Shown: one piece after another, positions 40,483 to 55,745 of the stretch
Layout of the letters: each line of letters begins with the position of its first letter
Numbering within the stretch: position 1 is the first letter of the stretch
From: Candidatus Enterousia sp.
GTDB taxonomy: Bacteria; Pseudomonadota; Alphaproteobacteria; Rs-D84
Direction: 5' to 3'
DNA: 64,000 nt
Assembly: GCA_045637165.1 (NCBI GenBank)
Contig: JAZTYU010000025.1
Location: 5,565-69,564 of the forward strand
Position numbers and translations under genes: made by a program
Notes under the pieces: generated by a model
What the model was told of the DNA's origin: nothing
Databases searched by the model: none
Seen by the model: the letters and a program-made list of their open reading frames with translations, nothing else

Positions 40483-41772
40483 TTATTTTTTCATTGTCTC
40501 ATACCATTTTTTAAGGTTTTGCCACACTATATCAATGTTCTTTTTGGTTGTGTCATAGAAGTCTGTGGATATCTGAACGTTAAATAAACTCTTGGCCAGG
40601 GCAGGAATCAACGTCATAAACATCGCAATAAATATGCCCATCAAGATTATTGTTATCAGGCTGTCATTACGCATCATCAAGGCGTCCATTAAAAATTTCG
40701 AATCGTTTTGTGTCAATGCTGTCGCCAATGCAGGTGCCCCTGCCCAGTCGCCAAATATCGCATTCAGAAACATTACTGCAAACGCTACAAACACACCTGT
40801 TATCGCCAAGCCAAGTGTTGCAGATATAACATAATCAATTATTCCACGAATCGTATTACCAGCCCCAGCAAGCGATATTTTCCAGCCCTTGAACAGCCAC
40901 GCCAGTAGCATTAGCGGCAGCATTACCAAGTCCATCGCCAGGGTTATAAAGATTTCTAGGAAATACAATGGAATTGGTAACAACGCCATAAAAAACAAGA
41001 CCAGTATCGCAAGCCCTGCAAAAAACATTATGACATTTGGAAAGATCGGAATCTCCCACATAATTGTATGCATATAATCCGTATCAAATGCCATATTCAA
41101 CATCGTCCAACCAACCGTCATACCCAAACCTGTCATCTGATGAACACCAGATAACTCACACGCCAGGTTATGACGCAATTTCGGTGAAAACGTCCCAGAA
41201 TTTGATGCAGCAGCATCAATCGATGTCGAATCTGCCAGTGCCGTCGCAACAACACATGCATCAAAGCCATCTTCGTGAACAATCGCCCTGTTTAGCGAAA
41301 GACCTATGTTAAAAACAGGTTCTATCGCAATTTCAGATATCATTCGTGGCAGTGGGGCGACCAATAATGCAGCAACAACCCCCAGTTTGAACAAATGTGT
41401 TGTAAAAGTGTTTGCGATTGACCAGGGGCCTTGAATTTTCTGATTCATAAAGCCATCAAGCAATTTCCACGCAAACCAAGTAGCAGACAGAATTATCGCA
41501 AACGGAATAATTACACCACCCAACGAATGATAAACCTTGGGTAATAAATTCGACATCGTTGCCATAATGTCAGAAAACATACTGCACGTCCAACAACTGG
41601 AAAAAAACTGATACGCACTGGACATATCAACAGGAACAGTGCTGCGATAAATCGCAAAACCAGCAAGAACACCAACGCCTGCAATGCCGCCAACAACAAA
41701 CGGTGCAACCGCACCCGCCGTAAATGGCAAGAAAGACAAAAACGTAATCCAAAATTTTTTTATACGATTCAT
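40483..41772 (-). CDS. VirB6/TrbL-like polytopic membrane protein, paralog 1 of 5 (divergent copy)
   Basis: It shares family motifs with the four downstream paralogs: N-terminal CWTCSMFSDIM..., IEPVFNIGLSL, a loop Cys pair, 5-6 TM helices, and a K/W-rich tail (VWQNLKKWYETMKK). Start taken at ATG 41772; the track TTG 41802 is the alternative. Confidence 0.55.
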   Translation of the reverse strand: MNRIKKFWITFLSFLPFTAGAVAPFVVGGIAGVGVLAGFAIYRSTVPVDMSSAYQFFSSCWTCSMFSDIMATMSNLLPKVYHSLGGVIIPFAIILSATWFAWKLLDGFMNQKIQGPWSIANTFTTHLFKLGVVAALLVAPLPRMISEIAIEPVFNIGLSLNRAIVHEDGFDACVVATALADSTSIDAAASNSGTFSPKLRHNLACELSGVHQMTGLGMTVGWTMLNMAFDTDYMHTIMWEIPIFPNVIMFFAGLAILVLFFMALLPIPLYFLEIFITLAMDLVMLPLMLLAWLFKGWKISLAGAGNTIRGIIDYVISATLGLAITGVFVAFAVMFLNAIFGDWAGAPALATALTQNDSKFLMDALMMRNDSLITIILMGIFIAMFMTLIPALAKSLFNVQISTDFYDTTKKNIDIVWQNLKKWYETMKK

Positions 41773-41782
41773 TGCTTTTAAG

Positions 41783-41812
41783 TATATCACATTTTGTCCC
41801 AAATGTGATATA
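41783..41812. promoter_or_regulatory. Perfect 12-bp inverted repeat (candidate operator) in the divergent promoter region
   Basis: TATATCACATTT-tgtccc-AAATGTGATATA. It overlaps a TATAAT -10 box (41809-41814) facing the 4-gene operon and a TATACT box on the other strand. Confidence 0.55.
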
Positions 41813-41841
41813 ATTGAAATAATAAATATAAATTATAGAGA

Positions 41842-43110
41842 ATGTATATATTAAAAAAACTGTTCTGGGTTTGTGTTTTTGCGGGGGTGTTTTGCACGCC
41901 TGGGTCAGCATTTGCAGGAAACATCATTGATGCATTAAACCTGGCACCGTTTGTTTCGATGGTGCTGGACGCTTTTATGATGGTCGCAACAGGAACATAC
42001 GAATTTTTTGTCGGTAATGGCGACGGGATTATATATATTTTGATTTGGATGTTTTTAGGGCTGACCATTGCATTGGCATTGGCAAAAATGTATATGCCAA
42101 AGGCATGGGCAGGATTACTGGGTATGTCGGGCGGTGGCGAAATCGAAAGCGGAAAAATCACCGGAACTAAAATTATTGAAAATGTTATGAAGCCCGGTTT
42201 TCGTGCAATTATTGCAACGGTATTATTGTTGCAAATTAAACCTGTGTTTCTGACAGAATGGCTGATAAATCCTTTTTTACAACTGGGGTCAATTTATACA
42301 AACGCACTGACAGAAACAATCAATCAGCCAGGAATGAAAGGTCCAGAATTAAAATGCCCACCAGAGATTGTTGAAAAAGCTTGGATTTCCGAAGATTCAT
42401 GCAACTTTTTAATCCAGCCTGTGTCCGATTTGTCAAATGCAAACAACCAAATTATCAAGCGTGGTTTCGATTCGCTGACCAGCGGTTTGTTGGGACTGAT
42501 TACACTGGTACCACATGGGGGCGAAGACTTCTTGAACGTGATAACAGGTCTGGTTTTAATCATAACCTTTGTGGGCAGTAATTTGTTTATGGCCCTGCTG
42601 ATTATCCAGGGAATATTTAATATTGGCATGCAGTTGATTTTATATCCGTTCTTTGTGCTGACATATGTGTTCAAGTCAAGCGATAAATGGCTGGATGTGT
42701 GGCCGGCATTTGGCGGTATAACCAAGGCGTTGCAACAACTGATTATCACAATGATTGCCTGTGCATTTATGCTGTGTGTAAATTTGGCAATTATTCATGC
42801 GTTATTTGATTGGAACTCGTCTGTTTTTGTTGTCGCAGCAGGTGGAACAGCGACCAGCAACATCCCAACAGTCGGAACAGGAGCAATGGGATTTGGCGAA
42901 CATTCTGTAACCTGGATGTCGGCAATACTGACGTTCTATTTGTTCTTTAAAATTTATGATATCACACAAAAACAACTGAAAAAGTATATCGGTGGGGGAA
43001 TGGACGGACTGTATAACAGTGTAAAGTCTGATTCTAAAACGCTGTGGGCAGGTGCAAAAAAATGGGGAACAAATATCGGCAAGGCCGCCGGTTGGATAAA
43101 AGGAAAATAA
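41842..43110 (+). CDS. VirB6/TrbL-like polytopic membrane protein, paralog 2 of 5
   Basis: 422 aa. Signal-like N-terminus, INPFLQLGSIY motif, loop Cys pair (KCPPE...SCNF), multiple TM helices, K/W-rich tail (LWAGAKKWGTNIGKAAGWIKGK). Confidence 0.55.
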   Translation: MYILKKLFWVCVFAGVFCTPGSAFAGNIIDALNLAPFVSMVLDAFMMVATGTYEFFVGNGDGIIYILIWMFLGLTIALALAKMYMPKAWAGLLGMSGGGEIESGKITGTKIIENVMKPGFRAIIATVLLLQIKPVFLTEWLINPFLQLGSIYTNALTETINQPGMKGPELKCPPEIVEKAWISEDSCNFLIQPVSDLSNANNQIIKRGFDSLTSGLLGLITLVPHGGEDFLNVITGLVLIITFVGSNLFMALLIIQGIFNIGMQLILYPFFVLTYVFKSSDKWLDVWPAFGGITKALQQLIITMIACAFMLCVNLAIIHALFDWNSSVFVVAAGGTATSNIPTVGTGAMGFGEHSVTWMSAILTFYLFFKIYDITQKQLKKYIGGGMDGLYNSVKSDSKTLWAGAKKWGTNIGKAAGWIKGK

Positions 43111-43117
43111 ATAAACA

Positions 43118-44305
43118 ATGAATAATTGGTTGGGAAACTTGGTCGATAATACTGTGCAGTGTTGGGGCTGCGAGATATTTGACAGACTGTTTCAGATTGT
43201 GTCTGATGCAGCCGCCAATGTTTACAACCAGTTTGCGTTTGTATGCACCGTTTTATTCTGTGTGTTGTTTGCGTTCTTTGTATTAAACGCAGTTTGGAAA
43301 AGCATCAAAGGCGGTGGAACAGACCCACTTTATACAAAATCTGTGCAAAAGGTTTTTATCAACGCAATTGTATGTATCGGTTTTTTAGGTATGGGGGTGG
43401 CACTGCCACGATTTATAACAACTGTTACATTTGAACCTGCTGCACAAATCGCAATGACATATACCCAGGCAATGATAAACCTGGACCAGGAACAGGTTGC
43501 AGAAAAAATTACATACAAACCTATGAAAATGTCAGACGATGGTTTTTATCGCCCAGAACTGCGTGATAAAATTATTATGCTGATGAAAACAACTATCACA
43601 CAATTCCAGTCGTATATAAAACTGGGGATTGCAGTTATGGATTCGGCTTTTTCATGGAAGGCTCTGTTGGGTGTTGGCAGTTTAATAAAACACATTATCT
43701 TGTTTGTTATTGGGGCATATTTGTCGTGGTATTTCTTTAAGATGTTTTTCAGATTTTGCTGCTATTTTGCAGACATTATTATTGCAATGGTGTTTTTTGC
43801 GTTCTTTTTCCCATTATCATTAGCACTGTATTCATTCAAAGGGGCAGATAATGTGCCGGGTTGGATTGGCGGACTGGGCAAGACAATTGGTATCGGACAA
43901 TTTAAAAACTTGATAAACGCAATTATAACGTTGGCCTCAACCGTTATAACATACACAGTAATTATGGTTATCATCGCAAAGTTCTTTTCTGCACCAGGGG
44001 CATCAAACGCTGATTTGATGGCCGCAATTACCACAGGACAAATTTTTGATGCAGATTTAAACACTGAAAATTTACAAGCGTTGACATTGGCCAGTTGTTT
44101 GATTCTAACATATGTGTTGAACTTTATTTACGGACAAATTCCACAGGTTACAAAAATGATTCTGTCGGTATTTGGGGTCGATGAAAGTAAAACAAATAGT
44201 GAAAAGTTGGCAGACGATATGATGAATCTGACAAAAACTGTTTGGGACACAACAAAAAAAGTCGGTGAAGCAATTATTACAGGCGGGGAAAAAGATAAAA
44301 AATAA
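43118..44305 (+). CDS. VirB6/TrbL-like polytopic membrane protein, paralog 3 of 5
   Basis: 395 aa. The N-terminal layout CWGCEIFDRLFQIVSDAAANVYNQF, then a TM, then AVWKSIKGGG and VQKVFINAIVCIGFLG mirrors the N-terminal helix / TM1 / basic-Gly turn / TM2 pattern of VirB6. Tail VWDTTKKVGEAIITGGEKDKK. Confidence 0.58.
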   Translation: MNNWLGNLVDNTVQCWGCEIFDRLFQIVSDAAANVYNQFAFVCTVLFCVLFAFFVLNAVWKSIKGGGTDPLYTKSVQKVFINAIVCIGFLGMGVALPRFITTVTFEPAAQIAMTYTQAMINLDQEQVAEKITYKPMKMSDDGFYRPELRDKIIMLMKTTITQFQSYIKLGIAVMDSAFSWKALLGVGSLIKHIILFVIGAYLSWYFFKMFFRFCCYFADIIIAMVFFAFFFPLSLALYSFKGADNVPGWIGGLGKTIGIGQFKNLINAIITLASTVITYTVIMVIIAKFFSAPGASNADLMAAITTGQIFDADLNTENLQALTLASCLILTYVLNFIYGQIPQVTKMILSVFGVDESKTNSEKLADDMMNLTKTVWDTTKKVGEAIITGGEKDKK

Positions 44306-45798
44306 TGTTAAAAGCACAACTAATCTTGGTCGCTGTTAGATTCTTGATGGGGGCAATCGCATTAGGAATTGGAGTGTGGTATTTGTCATCATCAATCGGT
44401 GGTGCTGCACTGACATATACAAACATGGGAAATTTTCTGACCGCAATCGGTGTTGAAAACGGCGATATCGCCAGTGCAAATGCGTGCTTTATGTGTGGAT
44501 ATATCGCAGACTTGTTTTCAATAATCGGGGACGCAACCGAACGCTTTTGGAATTTGATGGTAAAAAATATTTGGGTGCTGGTGGCAGTTGGTTTTGGCAT
44601 CTTTATGTTTATCCACACTGTTCAATACATCTTTGACCACGCAAAGAAAACAATAAACTATGAAAAGCCAACAGAACACAAGATTGAATTCAAGGCCTGG
44701 TGGGACAAGGTTTGGAAGTTGGGTGTGCGAATTATGATTGTTGGGACCCTTATGGGGGCATTGGGTATGGGCGGTACCAGCGCACTGCGTAGTGTTTCAC
44801 AGATAACAATTACACCCGTTCTATATATGGGGGCAGAACTGGGTATGATTGCGTCCGGGGTGTCAGAGGCTGCCGATTGCGGTGCGTTAAGCAATGTCCA
44901 GTCTGGCAACAAATCAGACGATATCTTAAATCCAATTATGCAACCGTTTATGTGCGTAATGGGAAATATAAACAGCGTTATGCTGGCCGGGGCAGCAGGT
45001 GGTTTTTCAATGATGAATTATGCCTGGCTGGATTTAGGCGGTGGTGTGTTGACGTGGGTTGCAGGCTTGGTGCTGGTGTTGATGTTCCTGGTTATTGGAT
45101 TTGACCTGTTCTTTCAAATACTGTCAATTGTGTTTAAACTGGTCTTTATAATCATATTTATGCCATTACTGTTGGCGGCAAGTGCGTTTGAAGGAACTTG
45201 GTCCAAGGCAAGCGGTCTGGTCAGCAAGGCAATCGGAATGCTGGTGTCGTCTGCGGTGAGAATTGTCGCAATCACATTAAAGGTCTTGGTGATATACGCA
45301 ACTGTTTCATATACTGCTGACGCATATTTCCCAGGACCACGTGATGGATATAGTGTGGTCTTGCCACCAATGATGGGTCAAAAAATCGAAAATCCTGATG
45401 CACAAACGCTGTCTGTGATTGACGTATTTGCAACCTGCGAACAGGTGGCGTTGGTTGACGGTGAAATGGACAAGGATTTATTCAAAAACTGTTTCAATGC
45501 ACGCAAAGCTCAGGTCGAACGGTCTTATCCAGGGGCATTTGATTTCTTGGCCGACGGGTGGGAATTTTTGTTGATGATGGTATTCTTGTTCTTTTTATAC
45601 TATTACGCAATCAGTCCAAAAATTGACAAACTGTTGCCAAATGGTGGTGTTAAATTGCCAATACCTGGCGAAAACAGCAATGTGGCCACAGGTGAAACGT
45701 TTGACTTTGGTGCGTGGGTGCATGACCTGGGGCAAAAGATGTGGGCGGTGCCTGTGCAGATTACAGAAAAAATCACCAAGGCAATGGGTAAAAAATAA
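44305..45798 (+). CDS. VirB6/TrbL-like polytopic membrane protein, paralog 4 of 5
   Basis: 497 aa. CFMCGYIADLFSIIGDATERFW, ITPVLYMGAEL, a loop Cys pair, many TM helices, tail MWAVPVQITEKITKAMGKK. The start overlaps the previous stop (TAATG). Confidence 0.55.
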   Translation: MLKAQLILVAVRFLMGAIALGIGVWYLSSSIGGAALTYTNMGNFLTAIGVENGDIASANACFMCGYIADLFSIIGDATERFWNLMVKNIWVLVAVGFGIFMFIHTVQYIFDHAKKTINYEKPTEHKIEFKAWWDKVWKLGVRIMIVGTLMGALGMGGTSALRSVSQITITPVLYMGAELGMIASGVSEAADCGALSNVQSGNKSDDILNPIMQPFMCVMGNINSVMLAGAAGGFSMMNYAWLDLGGGVLTWVAGLVLVLMFLVIGFDLFFQILSIVFKLVFIIIFMPLLLAASAFEGTWSKASGLVSKAIGMLVSSAVRIVAITLKVLVIYATVSYTADAYFPGPRDGYSVVLPPMMGQKIENPDAQTLSVIDVFATCEQVALVDGEMDKDLFKNCFNARKAQVERSYPGAFDFLADGWEFLLMMVFLFFLYYYAISPKIDKLLPNGGVKLPIPGENSNVATGETFDFGAWVHDLGQKMWAVPVQITEKITKAMGKK

Positions 45799-47093
45799 TG
45801 AAGTGGATAAAAAAAATCTTTGGTGGGATTATTATTGCAATTACTGCAATAACATTGGCAGCACCTGCATTTTGTGCAGCCAGCAATATGCCTATGCCTG
45901 ATATTGGCGATAATGGGACGTGGGCAACAGATAACAACAAAGAATTATTTGTTGGCGAATTGACCAATGATATCAATCAATTTCAGGGCGAATTCCAGAA
46001 AAAAGTCGTTAAAGACTATGTTCCAATAGAGGCTAAAATTGGTCTGACATTTATGAATGCTTTGTCTTTTGTAAGCGATGTTCTGGATTCGTCCTTGGTT
46101 CGATTTGTTGTGCTGTTTATGTTTATTGCTTTTATGTTCTGGGTAATGTTCGAAACTTACAATATGATGCAGGGTGGCAAAGGCAACACAATGGATCTGA
46201 TTAAAAACATCGTAAAAAAAGGAACGATGATTGCAATTTGGGTCGTTGTTTTGCGTTTTGGACCAGCACAGATTTTCATGTGGATAATGGGTCCAATTGT
46301 CAGCGTTGGGACATATCTGGCAGACTTTATATTAGATGCAGTGGCCGCCAGTGCGGGGGCAGAACTGCCCAATACATGTGCAGCAATTCGTGAATATACG
46401 GCTGCTAATATTTCTGCAAATAACATAATTGATGCAAATGCCGCCGCAGATATGATGTGCCTGCCAACAAGACTGTCAGGTTTTTGCTATACAGCGATTG
46501 CAGCAGGTTTCAAGTGGATGCTGGCTGGAATTGGACGCAGTGCATTTACTTTTATTGGCGGCCTGTTATTTGTTGTGATGTTCATTATGATTGCATGGAA
46601 ATTTATGTTTATGGCACTGGGGGTTATCGCAGACTTGTTCCTGGGGGTTATGATGTTGCCTTTTACCGCAATCAAGGAAACAATTGGCAGCACTTCATAC
46701 AAGGGTATGGCCGGAAATATCTTTAACAGTTTCTTGAAAATATTCAGCACAGAATCACTGGACGACCAGATAAAACGATTTGTTCAGGCGGCAATATATT
46801 TTGTTTCACTGTCAATCATAGTGGCTTTTTGTGCGGCAATGCTGTCAGGGGTTGTTGATGCAGATATTGCGTCCAGAATCCCAACACTGGAAAACGATGG
46901 GTTCTGGGTAACCGTTTTAGTTGGGGCGTTAACCTGGTGGTTTGCAAATCAGGCAATGGATTTGGCAAAAAAACTGGGGGGCAGTATAACAACATCTGTT
47001 GGCGACCAAATGCGTGGCGATATTAAAAAGATGTGGGATAATACCACTGGCACAGCGAAAAAATGGTGGAAGATTATCAAAGATGGCAAATAA
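45798..47093 (+). CDS. VirB6/TrbL-like polytopic membrane protein, paralog 5 of 5
   Basis: 431 aa. Signal peptide, MGPIVSVGTYL motif, loop Cys pair (NTCAAIRE...MMCLPTRLSGFC), tail KKMWDNTTGTAKKWWKIIKDGK. The start overlaps the previous stop (TAATG). Confidence 0.55.
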   Translation: MKWIKKIFGGIIIAITAITLAAPAFCAASNMPMPDIGDNGTWATDNNKELFVGELTNDINQFQGEFQKKVVKDYVPIEAKIGLTFMNALSFVSDVLDSSLVRFVVLFMFIAFMFWVMFETYNMMQGGKGNTMDLIKNIVKKGTMIAIWVVVLRFGPAQIFMWIMGPIVSVGTYLADFILDAVAASAGAELPNTCAAIREYTAANISANNIIDANAAADMMCLPTRLSGFCYTAIAAGFKWMLAGIGRSAFTFIGGLLFVVMFIMIAWKFMFMALGVIADLFLGVMMLPFTAIKETIGSTSYKGMAGNIFNSFLKIFSTESLDDQIKRFVQAAIYFVSLSIIVAFCAAMLSGVVDADIASRIPTLENDGFWVTVLVGALTWWFANQAMDLAKKLGGSITTSVGDQMRGDIKKMWDNTTGTAKKWWKIIKDGK

Positions 47094-52884: not shown

Positions 52885-52912
52885 AAAACATCCCCCATCT
52901 GGGGGATTTTTC
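52885..52912 (+). terminator. Rho-independent terminator after infB
   Basis: ATCCCCC-atct-GGGGGATTTTT. Confidence 0.75.
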
Positions 52913-52916
52913 TTAT

Positions 52917-52947
52917 AAAAACACAGCGTAAAATACGCTGTTTTTTT
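52917..52947. terminator. Second, bidirectional hairpin terminator
   Basis: ACAGCGTA-aaa-TACGCTGT followed by T7. It serves the convergent Cys-rich gene as well. Confidence 0.65.
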
Positions 52948-55222
52948 ATATCATACCAGTCCCTGTTCCATATACACATTTACTGTTTTTCATGTAATAA
53001 TTATCTTCACACACACATGAACCGTAAGTATTACGTATCGCATTATTACCACAATGTGCCACACAGGAATTACCCCATGGCTCATAACCGTTTTTACACA
53101 TACAATGTGCATTTACATAGAAGCCAACTGAATTTCCACTGCCATTTGCTATTTTGTCTGGTTCGGCCGCTGTTGATTGATAAATGGAATTTTCTGGGCA
53201 CAACAATGACTGATAGAACATTTCAGATACGCCTTCTAGGTATTGTTCATCTGTTGGCTCAGTCACAACTGAGCATTCTGTTTTTCCTGAGTTATCAATA
53301 CAAATCTCTATTTCACTGTTATAAAATATGGCGTATGCACAGGTCAACGCAACATTGCGGCATGCACCACGCATTACGTTATAAATGCTTTTGATGCTGG
53401 CAGATGAAGACCAGGAATTTAATTGCGATACCTGTTGATTATAGCAGGATGCAATATCAAGCATACAACTGGACGCATAATCAGAAATTATATTCTGTTG
53501 TGCTGAATTGATGTTTACCATCGCACGTTGAACATAATTTATAACAACATCATTGTATGGTTTATATTTTCCATTATCATCATAGGTATAACGCTGACAT
53601 TTATCCAAAACGGCACGGCACAGGCCTTCTTCGGTAACGGACTGTTTGGTTCCGATTTTTTGCAACAGATATTTAGCAACGCACGAACCATCGTTCGAAC
53701 CTTCTGCCTTGCAGTCGGTATCGGATATTTTCTGAGATGAATATGCATCTGTTAAAAATGTCGTGTCAATCGTAGCATTATTATACGATTTCATAAATTC
53801 GGTGATATCTGATATCTTTTGCCCCAGAACAACATTACCGTTTTCATCGATATAACGTTTGGTTGGGTCAACGCATTTGAAATAATCGTCGCCACAAACC
53901 ATGTCGTCTTTCATACATGTTTCCAGTGCAGCGATACAGCCCTTGGCATCATATTGATTTTTATTCTGCAATACCGCCAGACGTGCCTTTTGCAACATAC
54001 GGTTTGCACTGCGAACATTGGAAACCAGCGTTTCGTTCATCTTGGTCAAACCCTGTTCATAGGCAATACAATCCTTGTCAATTGCCAGGTCGTAATTTCC
54101 GGTAATCTGACTAACCGTTGCACCGGCCCCCTTGCACTGATTCAAAACAGTTGTGCAACGTTTTTTTGCAGCACTGTAAAGGTCAGAACCACGCAGATTT
54201 GAAAAACTGCTGGCACTGTCAGTATTCAGGAAATCCAAACTAAATAAATCTGCTGTTTCTGATGAAAAATCCAAATCCATATCAAATGTTGAAAATGTAT
54301 CAGACGAATACGACGAATTAGACACAGGGTCACGAATTAAATCTTCGATTTCTTGTAATAAATTACGGTTTTCAGATGTATCAACGGTGCCGCTTAGGGC
54401 TTCTTCGGCCTCAGTCTCGGTCATGATGGCACGAATTTCGTCTGCGGACAAACCAACATAGCGGATACGTTGGGCAACCTCGTTCAATTGGTTATTGGCA
54501 TCCTTGACAGCCTCTTCTACCTTGGTATAACGGGATAGATTCGATGAACATGAACAACGTCCCTGATTGGCATCGATTACGGCACAGAACTGGTCCATGC
54601 ATTCATTATACTGTTGCTGACAAGATTTATTTAACGTTGCTGTTTGTTCCAAGCGTTCGGTTGCCTGGGCAATTGTTTCACGATTTTTCTCAGCAGCGGC
54701 ACGTGATTGAATAGAACGCACAACCTCGTCAATATTGGAACCAGTCTGTTGGCCTGTATCACCAATTGTGGCACGACCGCCAACCTCGGCCGTTGAAGGA
54801 CGCAGGGTCAGTCCAGCCCGACGAACCACGGGATTGCTGTTGATACTGGCCGATGATACACGCTTATTACGGCCAACCGTATTGACCGCCGTGCTAAGAT
54901 TACTGCGGGCAACATCTTCGCCGTCAGACGATGATGTTAACGCACGGGATATGATTGTTGCACGTGCAGGGTCCACAGGCGTGTCTGTTTTTTTCTTGTC
55001 CGTGGTTGCCCCGGTAAAAACACGTGATACTGTATTTTGCACATCAGGCACCTGGCCAGTTGGACGGGTTGCAACACGGGAAACCGTTCCACGTTCGGTT
55101 GCGGAACTGGAATTTTCAGTCTTTTTCGCCGTAGGAATTGCACGAGAAATAGCCCCGTCAGCCGCAAAGGCCGTGGGTGCTGCGATTATTAGTGCAAAAA
55201 TACACGTTAACAGTCTTGTCAT
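52946..55222 (-). CDS. Large secreted cysteine-rich protein (758 aa), unknown function
   Basis: Signal peptide (IFALIIAAPTAFA). About 190 aa of S/T/R-rich low complexity with repeated VSR-like motifs. An acidic F/D/S segment. About 30 Cys in paired spacings through the C-terminal ~560 aa, ending in an EGF-like cluster (CMCKNGYEPWGNSCVAHCG...CVCEDNYYMKNSKC). Confidence 0.7.
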   Translation of the reverse strand: MTRLLTCIFALIIAAPTAFAADGAISRAIPTAKKTENSSSATERGTVSRVATRPTGQVPDVQNTVSRVFTGATTDKKKTDTPVDPARATIISRALTSSSDGEDVARSNLSTAVNTVGRNKRVSSASINSNPVVRRAGLTLRPSTAEVGGRATIGDTGQQTGSNIDEVVRSIQSRAAAEKNRETIAQATERLEQTATLNKSCQQQYNECMDQFCAVIDANQGRCSCSSNLSRYTKVEEAVKDANNQLNEVAQRIRYVGLSADEIRAIMTETEAEEALSGTVDTSENRNLLQEIEDLIRDPVSNSSYSSDTFSTFDMDLDFSSETADLFSLDFLNTDSASSFSNLRGSDLYSAAKKRCTTVLNQCKGAGATVSQITGNYDLAIDKDCIAYEQGLTKMNETLVSNVRSANRMLQKARLAVLQNKNQYDAKGCIAALETCMKDDMVCGDDYFKCVDPTKRYIDENGNVVLGQKISDITEFMKSYNNATIDTTFLTDAYSSQKISDTDCKAEGSNDGSCVAKYLLQKIGTKQSVTEEGLCRAVLDKCQRYTYDDNGKYKPYNDVVINYVQRAMVNINSAQQNIISDYASSCMLDIASCYNQQVSQLNSWSSSASIKSIYNVMRGACRNVALTCAYAIFYNSEIEICIDNSGKTECSVVTEPTDEQYLEGVSEMFYQSLLCPENSIYQSTAAEPDKIANGSGNSVGFYVNAHCMCKNGYEPWGNSCVAHCGNNAIRNTYGSCVCEDNYYMKNSKCVYGTGTGMI

Positions 55223-55273
55223 TCTCTTGGTGGTAATTATATCACATTTTTTTAACTGTGTTAACAGTCTTTT

Positions 55274-55301
55274 GAAAAAAAATCCGCCATTTGGCGGATT
55301 A
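55274..55301 (-). terminator. Hairpin terminator
   Basis: AATCCGCC-attt-GGCGGATT with an A8 run. Confidence 0.7.
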
Positions 55302-55745
55302 TTATTTTGCTGCTGCGTCTGTGGTGGCGCTTTCCAATAATTTTTTTGCTAACTCTACCTTGGCAGTGTCAATTTTTTCAGTAATTTGTTCTTTGATTTC
55401 TGTGCCTGCGTCTGTGGCCTGGGCCTTGACATTTTCAGTCGCTGTGCCGGCAGTAGATGTAATCTGTTCCGTTAGTGCGGTGATTTCTGGACTGTTTTCA
55501 GAAACTGCCTTTTTTACATAATCAACGCATTTTTGTGAAACTGTTTTTACGTTATCTGTCAAACATTCAACCAATGTTTTCTGACCTATGATTATTTCAG
55601 GACAAACAGATGTAATTTCGTCGATGTTGCATGCCTGGGACAATGTCTGGGGTTCGGATTCCTTCTTGAACAAATCAGAAAACCAGCCAGCATTTGCCGC
55701 AGTTGTTGTAAAACAAATTAAACCCAGAATAAATATACGTTTCAT
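55302..55745 (-). CDS. Small secreted protein with one cysteine-rich repeat and T/E/A/K-rich helical tail
   Basis: ATG 55745 (MKRIFILGLICFTTTAANA signal). C-x8-C-x12-C-x11-C (CNIDEITSVCPEIIIGQKTLVECLTDNVKTVSQKC) resembles the bacterial 'cysteine rich repeat' pattern C..D....C......G.....CL.......S..C. Confidence 0.6.
   Translation of the reverse strand: MKRIFILGLICFTTTAANAGWFSDLFKKESEPQTLSQACNIDEITSVCPEIIIGQKTLVECLTDNVKTVSQKCVDYVKKAVSENSPEITALTEQITSTAGTATENVKAQATDAGTEIKEQITEKIDTAKVELAKKLLESATTDAAAK

Follow-up and report, generated by a model that had tools for sequence, protein, structure and literature searches.

The DNA analysed here, called the window below, is a stretch of 64,000 nucleotides from a Candidatus Enterousia genome (contig C25:5565-69564 of an assembly of 0.996 Mb in 35 contigs, 96.5% complete). 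On its minus strand, at 52946..55222, the listing of open reading frames (ORFs) and their translations give a coding sequence of 758 codons plus a stop, which encodes the exported cysteine-rich protein that is the subject of this work. A promoter, TTAACA-17 nt-TATAAT, lies at 55236..55264 on the same strand; it matches 11 of 12 hexamer positions and has a TG before the -10 box (an extended -10). From the position of the promoter and the upstream sequence, we deduced a 5' untranslated region of about 13 nt with the ribosome-binding site AAGAGA, and an Rfam scan of the locus for a leader RNA returned chance-level matches only. The small gene upstream ends in a terminator hairpin (55281..55300, minus strand) that sits between it and the 758-codon gene, which has an intrinsic terminator of its own at 52923..52941 (minus strand), 5 nt past the stop codon. 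Since a terminator precedes it and both a promoter and a terminator belong to it, the gene is a real monocistronic unit, and its product bears a signal peptide. With its near-consensus extended -10 promoter and flanking terminators, we consider it a real gene, predicted to be independently expressed. The gene converges with infB, whose terminator hairpin (52890-52907) shares the intergenic space; the 61-bp gap between the two genes is filled by two back-to-back bidirectional hairpin terminators (52890-52941).

By scripted count the protein contains 31 cysteines; one of them, C7, belongs to the signal peptide, which leaves 30 for the mature chain. The signal peptide (residues 1-20, MTRLLTCIFALIIAAPTAFA; 55163..55222, this and all following segments being on the minus strand) is recognised in the sequence, with predicted cleavage after AFA, and residues 2-14 are helical in the AlphaFold model. 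C7 (codon 7, window 55202-55204) lies in the hydrophobic core of this peptide; it is kept in 88% of the orthologues and is too near the N-terminus to be a lipobox cysteine.

After the signal peptide comes an arm whose first part (residues 21-100; 54923..55162) is basic, variable and disordered, with a predicted local distance difference test score (pLDDT) of about 30. It bears four xVSRx motifs, which fit [TVAI][VI]SR[AVI] at residues 24, 46, 64 and 90; the expected number is 0.03, and none of 10,000 composition-preserving shuffles reached four. Across the whole family, the arms are also about 4.4-fold enriched in a less strict version of the motif, hydrophobic-x-[SA]-R-[AST]-[AG]. We also considered the arm as a domain common to other proteins and rejected this, a phmmer search with the arm alone recovering only the 758-residue protein itself. 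The second part of the arm (residues 101-190; 54653..54922), which includes NPVVRRAGLTLRPSTAEVGGR, is conserved, with a pLDDT below 50.

The first helical cysteine module (residues 191-300; 54323..54652) opens with the signature C-x2-Y-x2-CMD-x-FC ... RCSC; its cysteines C201, C208, C213, C223 and C225 are invariant, and its pLDDT is 85-95 up to residue 254 and goes down to 64-75 over residues 255-294. Inserted in the core behind it is an acidic loop rich in F, D, S and L (residues 301-345; 54188..54322; net charge -7), disordered in both of the models described below. In the main helical core (residues 346-632; 53327..54187), residues 370-421 and 558-604 each form a helix about 50 residues long. 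Thirteen cysteines of this core are near-invariant (356, 363, 385, 429, 436, 443, 450, 535, 542, 586, 593, 621 and 628), and it also contains a pair specific to the orthologues, 504/514. The spacing C-x6-C occurs seven times in the protein. The chain ends in a variable cysteine-rich tail (residues 633-758; 52949..53326) made of a beta hairpin, the helix EMFYQSLLC and two hairpin modules of four cysteines each (C675/707/709/720 and C724/736/738/749).

In the full-length AlphaFold model, built from a 44-sequence alignment, the mean pLDDT is 70 and the predicted template modelling score (pTM) 0.51, with residues 15-182 and 301-337 below 50. A second model, of residues 185-758 and based on 118 sequences, is more confident (mean pLDDT 86.6, pTM 0.66, 363 residues at or above 90). 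The predicted layout is a disordered stretch (15-182), a helical one (184-297), a second disordered stretch (301-337), a helical cysteine-stapled region (346-632) and short beta hairpins (638-751); the model of residues 185-758 is mostly helical, and its tail hairpins are arranged around one helix (658-674). A sequence-only reading of this DNA had described a 758-residue ORF whose product has a signal peptide followed by 30 cysteines, a recurring [TV][VI]SR[AV]-type motif and a tripartite layout; the ORF, the cysteine count and the motif were all reproduced, and the layout is backed by the model. Foldseek searches of the Protein Data Bank (PDB) with the two models gave no match (best E 1.2 and 0.92, template modelling (TM) score at most 0.14), one model searched against BFVD gave nothing usable, and sequence searches of the PDB, with a single sequence and with a profile, came back empty. 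The predicted fold is therefore one without a solved relative, and the disulfide-stapled helical fold that the models propose is likely new.

The different segments are conserved to very different degrees. Among 80 orthologues, identity is 19-39% in the variable part of the arm (19-29% over residues 51-100), 86% over residues 126-150, 81-93% over residues 201-275 and 91-93% over residues 376-425; over residues 626-758 it falls to 27-49% per 25-residue window, with 7% in the last eight residues, and is accompanied by insertions and deletions. The ratio of nonsynonymous to synonymous substitution rates (dN/dS), taken as the median Nei-Gojobori value over 22-28 close pairs, follows the same profile: 0.29 for residues 21-100 of the arm, 0.073 for residues 101-190, 0.019 for core residues 191-300, 0.056 for the acidic loop, 0.059 for core residues 346-630 and 0.19 for the tail, or 0.40 when the tail is compared with that of the nearest relative. 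This relative (L010) is 90% identical overall, and almost every difference lies past residue 632. The core is thus under strong purifying selection and both tips evolve faster. We regard the limits of the domains and their relative evolutionary rates as established. Since residues 101-190 and 301-345 are disordered in AlphaFold yet strongly constrained, the comparison suggests that they are putative binding segments.

Tail length varies from 75 to 325 residues among orthologues through extra cysteine modules, the number of tail cysteines being always even. The divergence of the tail tracks that of the core (r = 0.58). No pair combines a highly divergent tail with a little-divergent core, which rules out cassette swapping of tails; the variation consists of point changes and small insertions and deletions of cysteine modules. 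The arm is positively charged in 106 of 114 family members and the loop negatively charged in 112 of 114, but the two charges are uncorrelated (rho -0.05), so that an electrostatic pairing of arm and acidic loop was discarded.

The cysteines themselves are strongly retained. Eighteen are invariant across 44 diverse members of the family, and the same 18 are kept in 116-125 of 127 members. In the orthologues, cysteine positions are 93-100% conserved, the exceptions being C641 (10%), C738 (77%) and C749 (73%), and 80 related genomes carry the ORF, uninterrupted and conserved; neither of the outcomes that would have spoken against the earlier description, a disrupted ORF or drifting cysteines, was thus found. 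Counted from the start of the core to the C-terminus, the number of cysteines is even in 81 of 81 orthologues (range 26-40), a result with a probability of about 4e-25 under random parity, and in 107 of 120 family members. Moreover, C504 and C514 arise together, and among 127 members they do so in the orthologue group only. Even counts and pairwise gain point to intramolecular disulfides rather than to free cysteines available for a network. This parity is the strongest available evidence for intramolecular pairs, and its statistics indicate that the cysteines do pair.

The protein belongs to a large family. A word-indexed search found 1,047 homologues, of which the best 120 are 68-88% identical over residues 190-758, all the named ones being called "hypothetical". 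An exhaustive search of representatives at 50% identity returned 676 clusters, of which 185 reached E<=1e-30, with members of up to 2,338 residues. Orthologues with 55-89% identity were collected from 80 loci in gut metagenome-assembled genomes (MAGs) from human, yak, sheep, goat, deer, buffalo and chicken, representing at least 80 species-level genomes; the record titles include Candidatus Enterousia sp., Ca. Enterousia avicola and 'Alphaproteobacteria bacterium' MAG. The record L044 (CAVGNU010000001.1), a 108-kb contig entitled 'Bacteroides fragilis isolate ... cleanbin', carries the orthologue at 63% identity, with dnaQ-uvrD-VirB6 synteny of the Enterousia type, and is probably mislabelled.

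The genome that contains the window has about 15 paralogues totalling 10,842 residues, i.e. 3.65% of a crude ORF call and 3.3% of the DNA. All 15 share one plan: a signal peptide, a T/S/R/A-rich arm of 30-200 residues and, after the arm, a C-x6-C-x4-C core that opens with C-x2-Y-x2-CMD-x-FC ... RC-x-C. In a sample of the order Rs-D84, every one of the 92 genomes of the window's bacterial family carries at least 8-12 matches; its sister families have fewer and weaker ones, and one family (f2) has none. Among 149 other alphaproteobacterial genera there was a single weak and spurious match, confined to the low-complexity arm, and tblastn against phage and plasmid collections gave nothing. Pfam and NCBIfam produced no significant match for the query, 44 family members and 10 paralogues from its own genome, and a literature search found no publication mentioning the family. 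The export signal and these empty family and PDB sequence searches agree with the earlier view of an exported protein of no recognisable family. The family is conserved, expanded and taxonomically restricted, and the best explanation of the data is that the 758-residue protein is the most conserved member of a lineage-specific Sec-exported family.

The only real domain in the Pfam and NCBIfam scans, which covered the protein, its tail, the 10 paralogues and 11 long relatives, was the Listeria-Bacteroides repeat (PF09479). It was found in four of the long relatives (P0126-P0129), which are 55-59% identical to the whole query and bear 2-5 C-terminal stretches of it each (E down to 7e-41). This repeat is typical of cell-surface proteins. 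Its presence at the C-terminus of relatives argues that the C-terminus faces outward.

One protein of the DsbA family is encoded in the genome; its 274 residues include a membrane anchor at the N-terminus and the active site CGYC (G000:C4:5587-6063; L009 1162-1986). Across 121 Rs-D84 genomes, DsbA (PF01323) exceeds the cut-off in 119, while DsbB (PF02600) and VKOR (PF07884) do so in none, control genomes being positive as expected in each search. The sequence-only reading had proposed looking for dsbA and dsbB: the first has its counterpart here, and the absence of the second, together with VKOR, from the whole order was unexpected; in the genome studied the DsbA-like protein stands without either re-oxidase. 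For Enterousia, which belongs to Rs-D84, genomes below about 1 Mb have been reported, without a tricarboxylic acid cycle, a respiratory chain or standard transporters, and members of the order have been proposed to live in dependence on a partner (PMC12306168). A lineage that encodes exported cysteine-rich proteins by the dozen and invests heavily in paired cysteines, with DsbA in the absence of DsbB, VKOR and a respiratory chain, is a puzzle in itself.

With moderate confidence, we propose that the protein is a surface-displayed, disulfide-stapled helical stalk, with a basic tethering arm and a variable adhesive cysteine-knot head; the surface or host-interaction role suggested from the sequence is, in this form, the best supported of the readings compared here. 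Once the signal peptide has been cleaved off, the helical core (191-632) would fold in the periplasm into an elongated bundle, locked by at least nine intramolecular disulfides that the membrane-anchored DsbA-like protein would make. The basic disordered N-terminal arm may bind an anionic component of the envelope or a partner protein, with its degenerate V-[SA]-R-[AST]-[AG] repeats and the conserved segment 101-190 as ties. The fast-evolving cysteine-knot tail would face outward and contact a partner cell, a host glycan or mucus, and in relatives this tail is lengthened by extra cysteine modules or by Listeria-Bacteroides repeats. We infer the surface location, the orientation, the route across the outer membrane and the adhesive function; the contrast between a conserved core (dN/dS 0.02-0.06) and a faster arm and tail is what suggests a stalk-and-tip pattern, and the reported partner-dependent life of Rs-D84 fits a protein made for surface contact.

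Several observations weigh against this proposal. We found no outer-membrane anchor, beta-barrel, lipobox or known sorting signal in the 758-residue protein, and no secretion-system gene in an operon with its gene across the loci compared. The fusion to PF09479 exists in relatives and is absent from the protein itself, which is thus not a member of the repeat family. Very strong purifying selection over 440 residues is unusual for a simple adhesin and could instead reflect a conserved partner inside the envelope. Finally, with DsbB and VKOR absent and a respiratory chain reportedly lacking, there is at present no explanation for the re-oxidation of DsbA, nor for how disulfides would form in an anaerobe.

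The surface-stalk proposal has parallels with the trypanosome variant surface glycoprotein (VSG), a long disulfide-stabilised helical bundle with small C-terminal cysteine modules, encoded by a multigene family and fast-evolving in its exposed parts. The likeness to VSG, and to Borrelia Vsp and VlsE, is a functional analogy only and concerns the multigene family, the helical bundle and the fast-evolving parts; there is no structural match, the core studied here is highly conserved rather than hypervariable, and the orthologues are stable across species, with no evidence of switching. As for the tail, an EGF-like knot had been proposed at its end, and half of the motif is indeed there. The PROSITE EGF_2 pattern (C-x-C-x2-[GP]-[FYW]-x4-8-C) matches once, in the first four-cysteine module, at residue 707 (CMCKNGYEPWGNSC, actual spacing C-x-C-x2-G-Y-x6-C), and is kept in 70 of 81 orthologues. 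By contrast, Pfam gave no EGF or other match for the tail encoded in the window at E<=10, and the tails of two orthologues match only the C-terminal half of Pfam EGF models (EGF, cEGF and Pvs28 EGF), below threshold (best 19.6 bits against 26). The modelled tail shares with EGF modules small disulfide-rich beta hairpins, but has four cysteines per module where EGF modules have six. "EGF-like" thus denotes a resemblance and not a membership.

A different view, which we hold to be unlikely, places the protein inside the envelope, as a periplasmic scaffold with a role like that of OmcB: helical stapled proteins would be layered under or in the outer membrane, the arm binding peptidoglycan or lipid head groups and the paralogues acting as subunits of a lattice. 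It would account well for the extreme conservation of the core, for the universal presence of the family in at least 8-12 copies per genome, for the lack of a recognisable signal for outer-membrane translocation and for the basic arm and acidic loop found in nearly all members, which could aid electrostatic self-assembly. OmcB has a basic N-terminal segment that binds host glycosaminoglycans; the protein studied here resembles it in being exported, rich in cysteine and presumably located in the envelope, in starting with a basic segment and in coming from a bacterium with a small genome. However, it matches neither the Chlam_OMP6 nor the DUF11 model, its predicted fold is helical and that of OmcB beta-rich, and its even cysteine counts favour intramolecular disulfides over free cysteines engaged in intermolecular cross-links. 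The parity, as indirect evidence, thus lends no support to the chlamydial type of cross-linked envelope put forward in the sequence-only reading. In addition, fast-evolving tails of variable length, with PF09479 in relatives, are hard to square with a buried layer, and the uncorrelated charges of arm and loop speak against electrostatic assembly. More improbable still is the idea that the cysteines are ligands of metals or cofactors, or stay reduced in the anoxic gut, instead of forming disulfides. The missing DsbB and VKOR, the reported lack of a respiratory chain (PMC12306168) and the anaerobic habitat would agree with it; strict even parity with gain and loss in pairs, an i/i+7 spacing on helices that is typical of inter-helix staples, the retention of a DsbA-like CGYC protein in almost all of these reduced genomes and the fact that these are Sec-exported proteins without CxxCH or known metal motifs make it very doubtful.

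Two other functions can be weighed from the gene's surroundings and its variable end. The protein might be an accessory of a type IV secretion (T4SS)-like apparatus, with a TraN- or VirB5-like role as a contact or stabiliser beside the neighbouring VirB6-like array. In the window this array occupies 40483-47093, 5.8 kb from the gene; of 80 loci, at least 36 have the array 0-6 kb from the orthologue, in three different gene orders, and one locus (L061) has it directly upstream on the same strand. TraN (PF06986), the mating-pair stabilisation protein of F-type systems, is a Sec-exported proteobacterial protein of the 600-residue class. About 20 of its cysteines are conserved, as is its body, and its variable tip chooses the partner surface; the protein studied here shows a comparable division between conserved core and variable tail. 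On the other side, neither the query nor 44 family members show profile similarity to TraN (E<=1), and the Foldseek search against the PDB gave no structural match (best E 0.92, TM at most 0.14) in a library whose inclusion of a TraN chain is unconfirmed. The acidic loop of the protein and its long arm, basic and disordered, have to our knowledge no described counterpart in TraN. The family is not in a tra operon but has about 15 chromosomal paralogues per genome, and the gene stands alone as a cistron, between its own promoter and terminator, among housekeeping neighbours that differ from genome to genome and with an array that is separable from it. Since every family of the order has VirB6-like genes, even the one without the protein family (f2), and these genes lie tens of kb away from the gene or on other contigs in several genomes (e.g. 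G051, G040 and G044), we read the linkage as inherited synteny and not as an operon, and consider such an accessory role improbable. An equally low likelihood is given to a soluble secreted effector or toxin-delivery scaffold, in which the conserved N-terminal two-thirds would serve trafficking and the variable C-terminus would be the cargo, as in Sec-dependent polymorphic toxins. A conserved front with a variable tail, and family members of 1,700-2,300 residues, would suit this scheme, but the tails and the long relatives contain no toxin or enzyme domain, only PF09479, and downstream of the gene there is a terminator followed by the convergent infB, and no immunity-like gene; MafB-like membership is thereby set aside, and a tail that tracks its core without cassette swapping also argues against a cargo of this kind.

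Ca. Enterousia and Rs-D84 are widespread uncultured gut bacteria of humans and livestock, with genomes of 0.7-1.1 Mb. The protein family is universal in Enterousia's bacterial family, has no known relatives and occupies about 3% of the genome, which makes it a leading candidate for the molecules by which these bacteria contact a partner or host. More speculatively, and with a good deal less confidence than for the stalk itself, an undescribed fold might provide a gut alphaproteobacterium that depends obligately on a partner with its main surface coat or its attachment repertoire, with 13-20 disulfides per orthologue chain (15 here) made through DsbA without DsbB, VKOR or quinones. If this were true, it would imply a new route of oxidative folding in an anaerobe. 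In practice, the conserved core offers an antibody target for locating, enriching or capturing the organism.

The genes around the studied gene vary. The gene order of the window is common to its nearest relative only; in 33 loci the order is the studied gene, dnaQ, uvrD and the VirB6-like array, and elsewhere the immediate neighbours, named from their translations, include rplU, a sigma factor, a porin-like protein, dnaA, valS and Skp-like genes. As the adjoining genes change from genome to genome, a conserved operon partner was rejected. The small gene 80 bp upstream (55302-55745, minus strand) encodes a secreted protein of 147 residues with one four-cysteine unit, a T/E/A/K-rich helical tail and its own terminator; it was likewise rejected as a conserved partner, being found beside the orthologue in the nearest relative (L010) only. 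In about 25 loci, a second member of the family lies one to three genes upstream. A paralogue of 757 residues is encoded on the same strand about 9 kb upstream, some 140 bp past the right end of the window (G000:C25:69706-71979); in about 24 related loci its orthologue precedes the studied gene by one to three genes and adjoins a gene for a signal-peptide protein of about 190 residues (cluster 5).

Further observations concern the rest of the genome. There is a single secretin gene (PF00263), at G000:C9:40815-43426 (L105 13815-16426), adjoining a TcpQ-like gene (PF10671) and two unannotated ORFs, with no pilus or type II secretion ATPase in its immediate neighbourhood; the secretin and TcpQ-like pair is a possible outer-membrane route, for which no link to the studied gene was found. 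The same pair of family members is encoded at almost equal offsets on two contigs (G000:C24:1037-5236 and C30:1050-5790), the first being 851 residues long in each and the second 536 and 720 residues, which is due either to a recent duplication or to strain heterogeneity in the assembly. Proteins so rich in cysteine had been called uncommon in bacterial periplasms, which holds in general but not here: the crude ORF call contains 71 cysteine-rich ORFs, about 13% of the coding residues, 15 of them from the studied family. Giant cysteine-rich ORFs are also present, at C19:22452-30899 (2,815 residues, 179 cysteines), C11:26498-33040 (2,180 residues, 143 cysteines) and C7:32619-38861 (2,080 residues, 98 cysteines).

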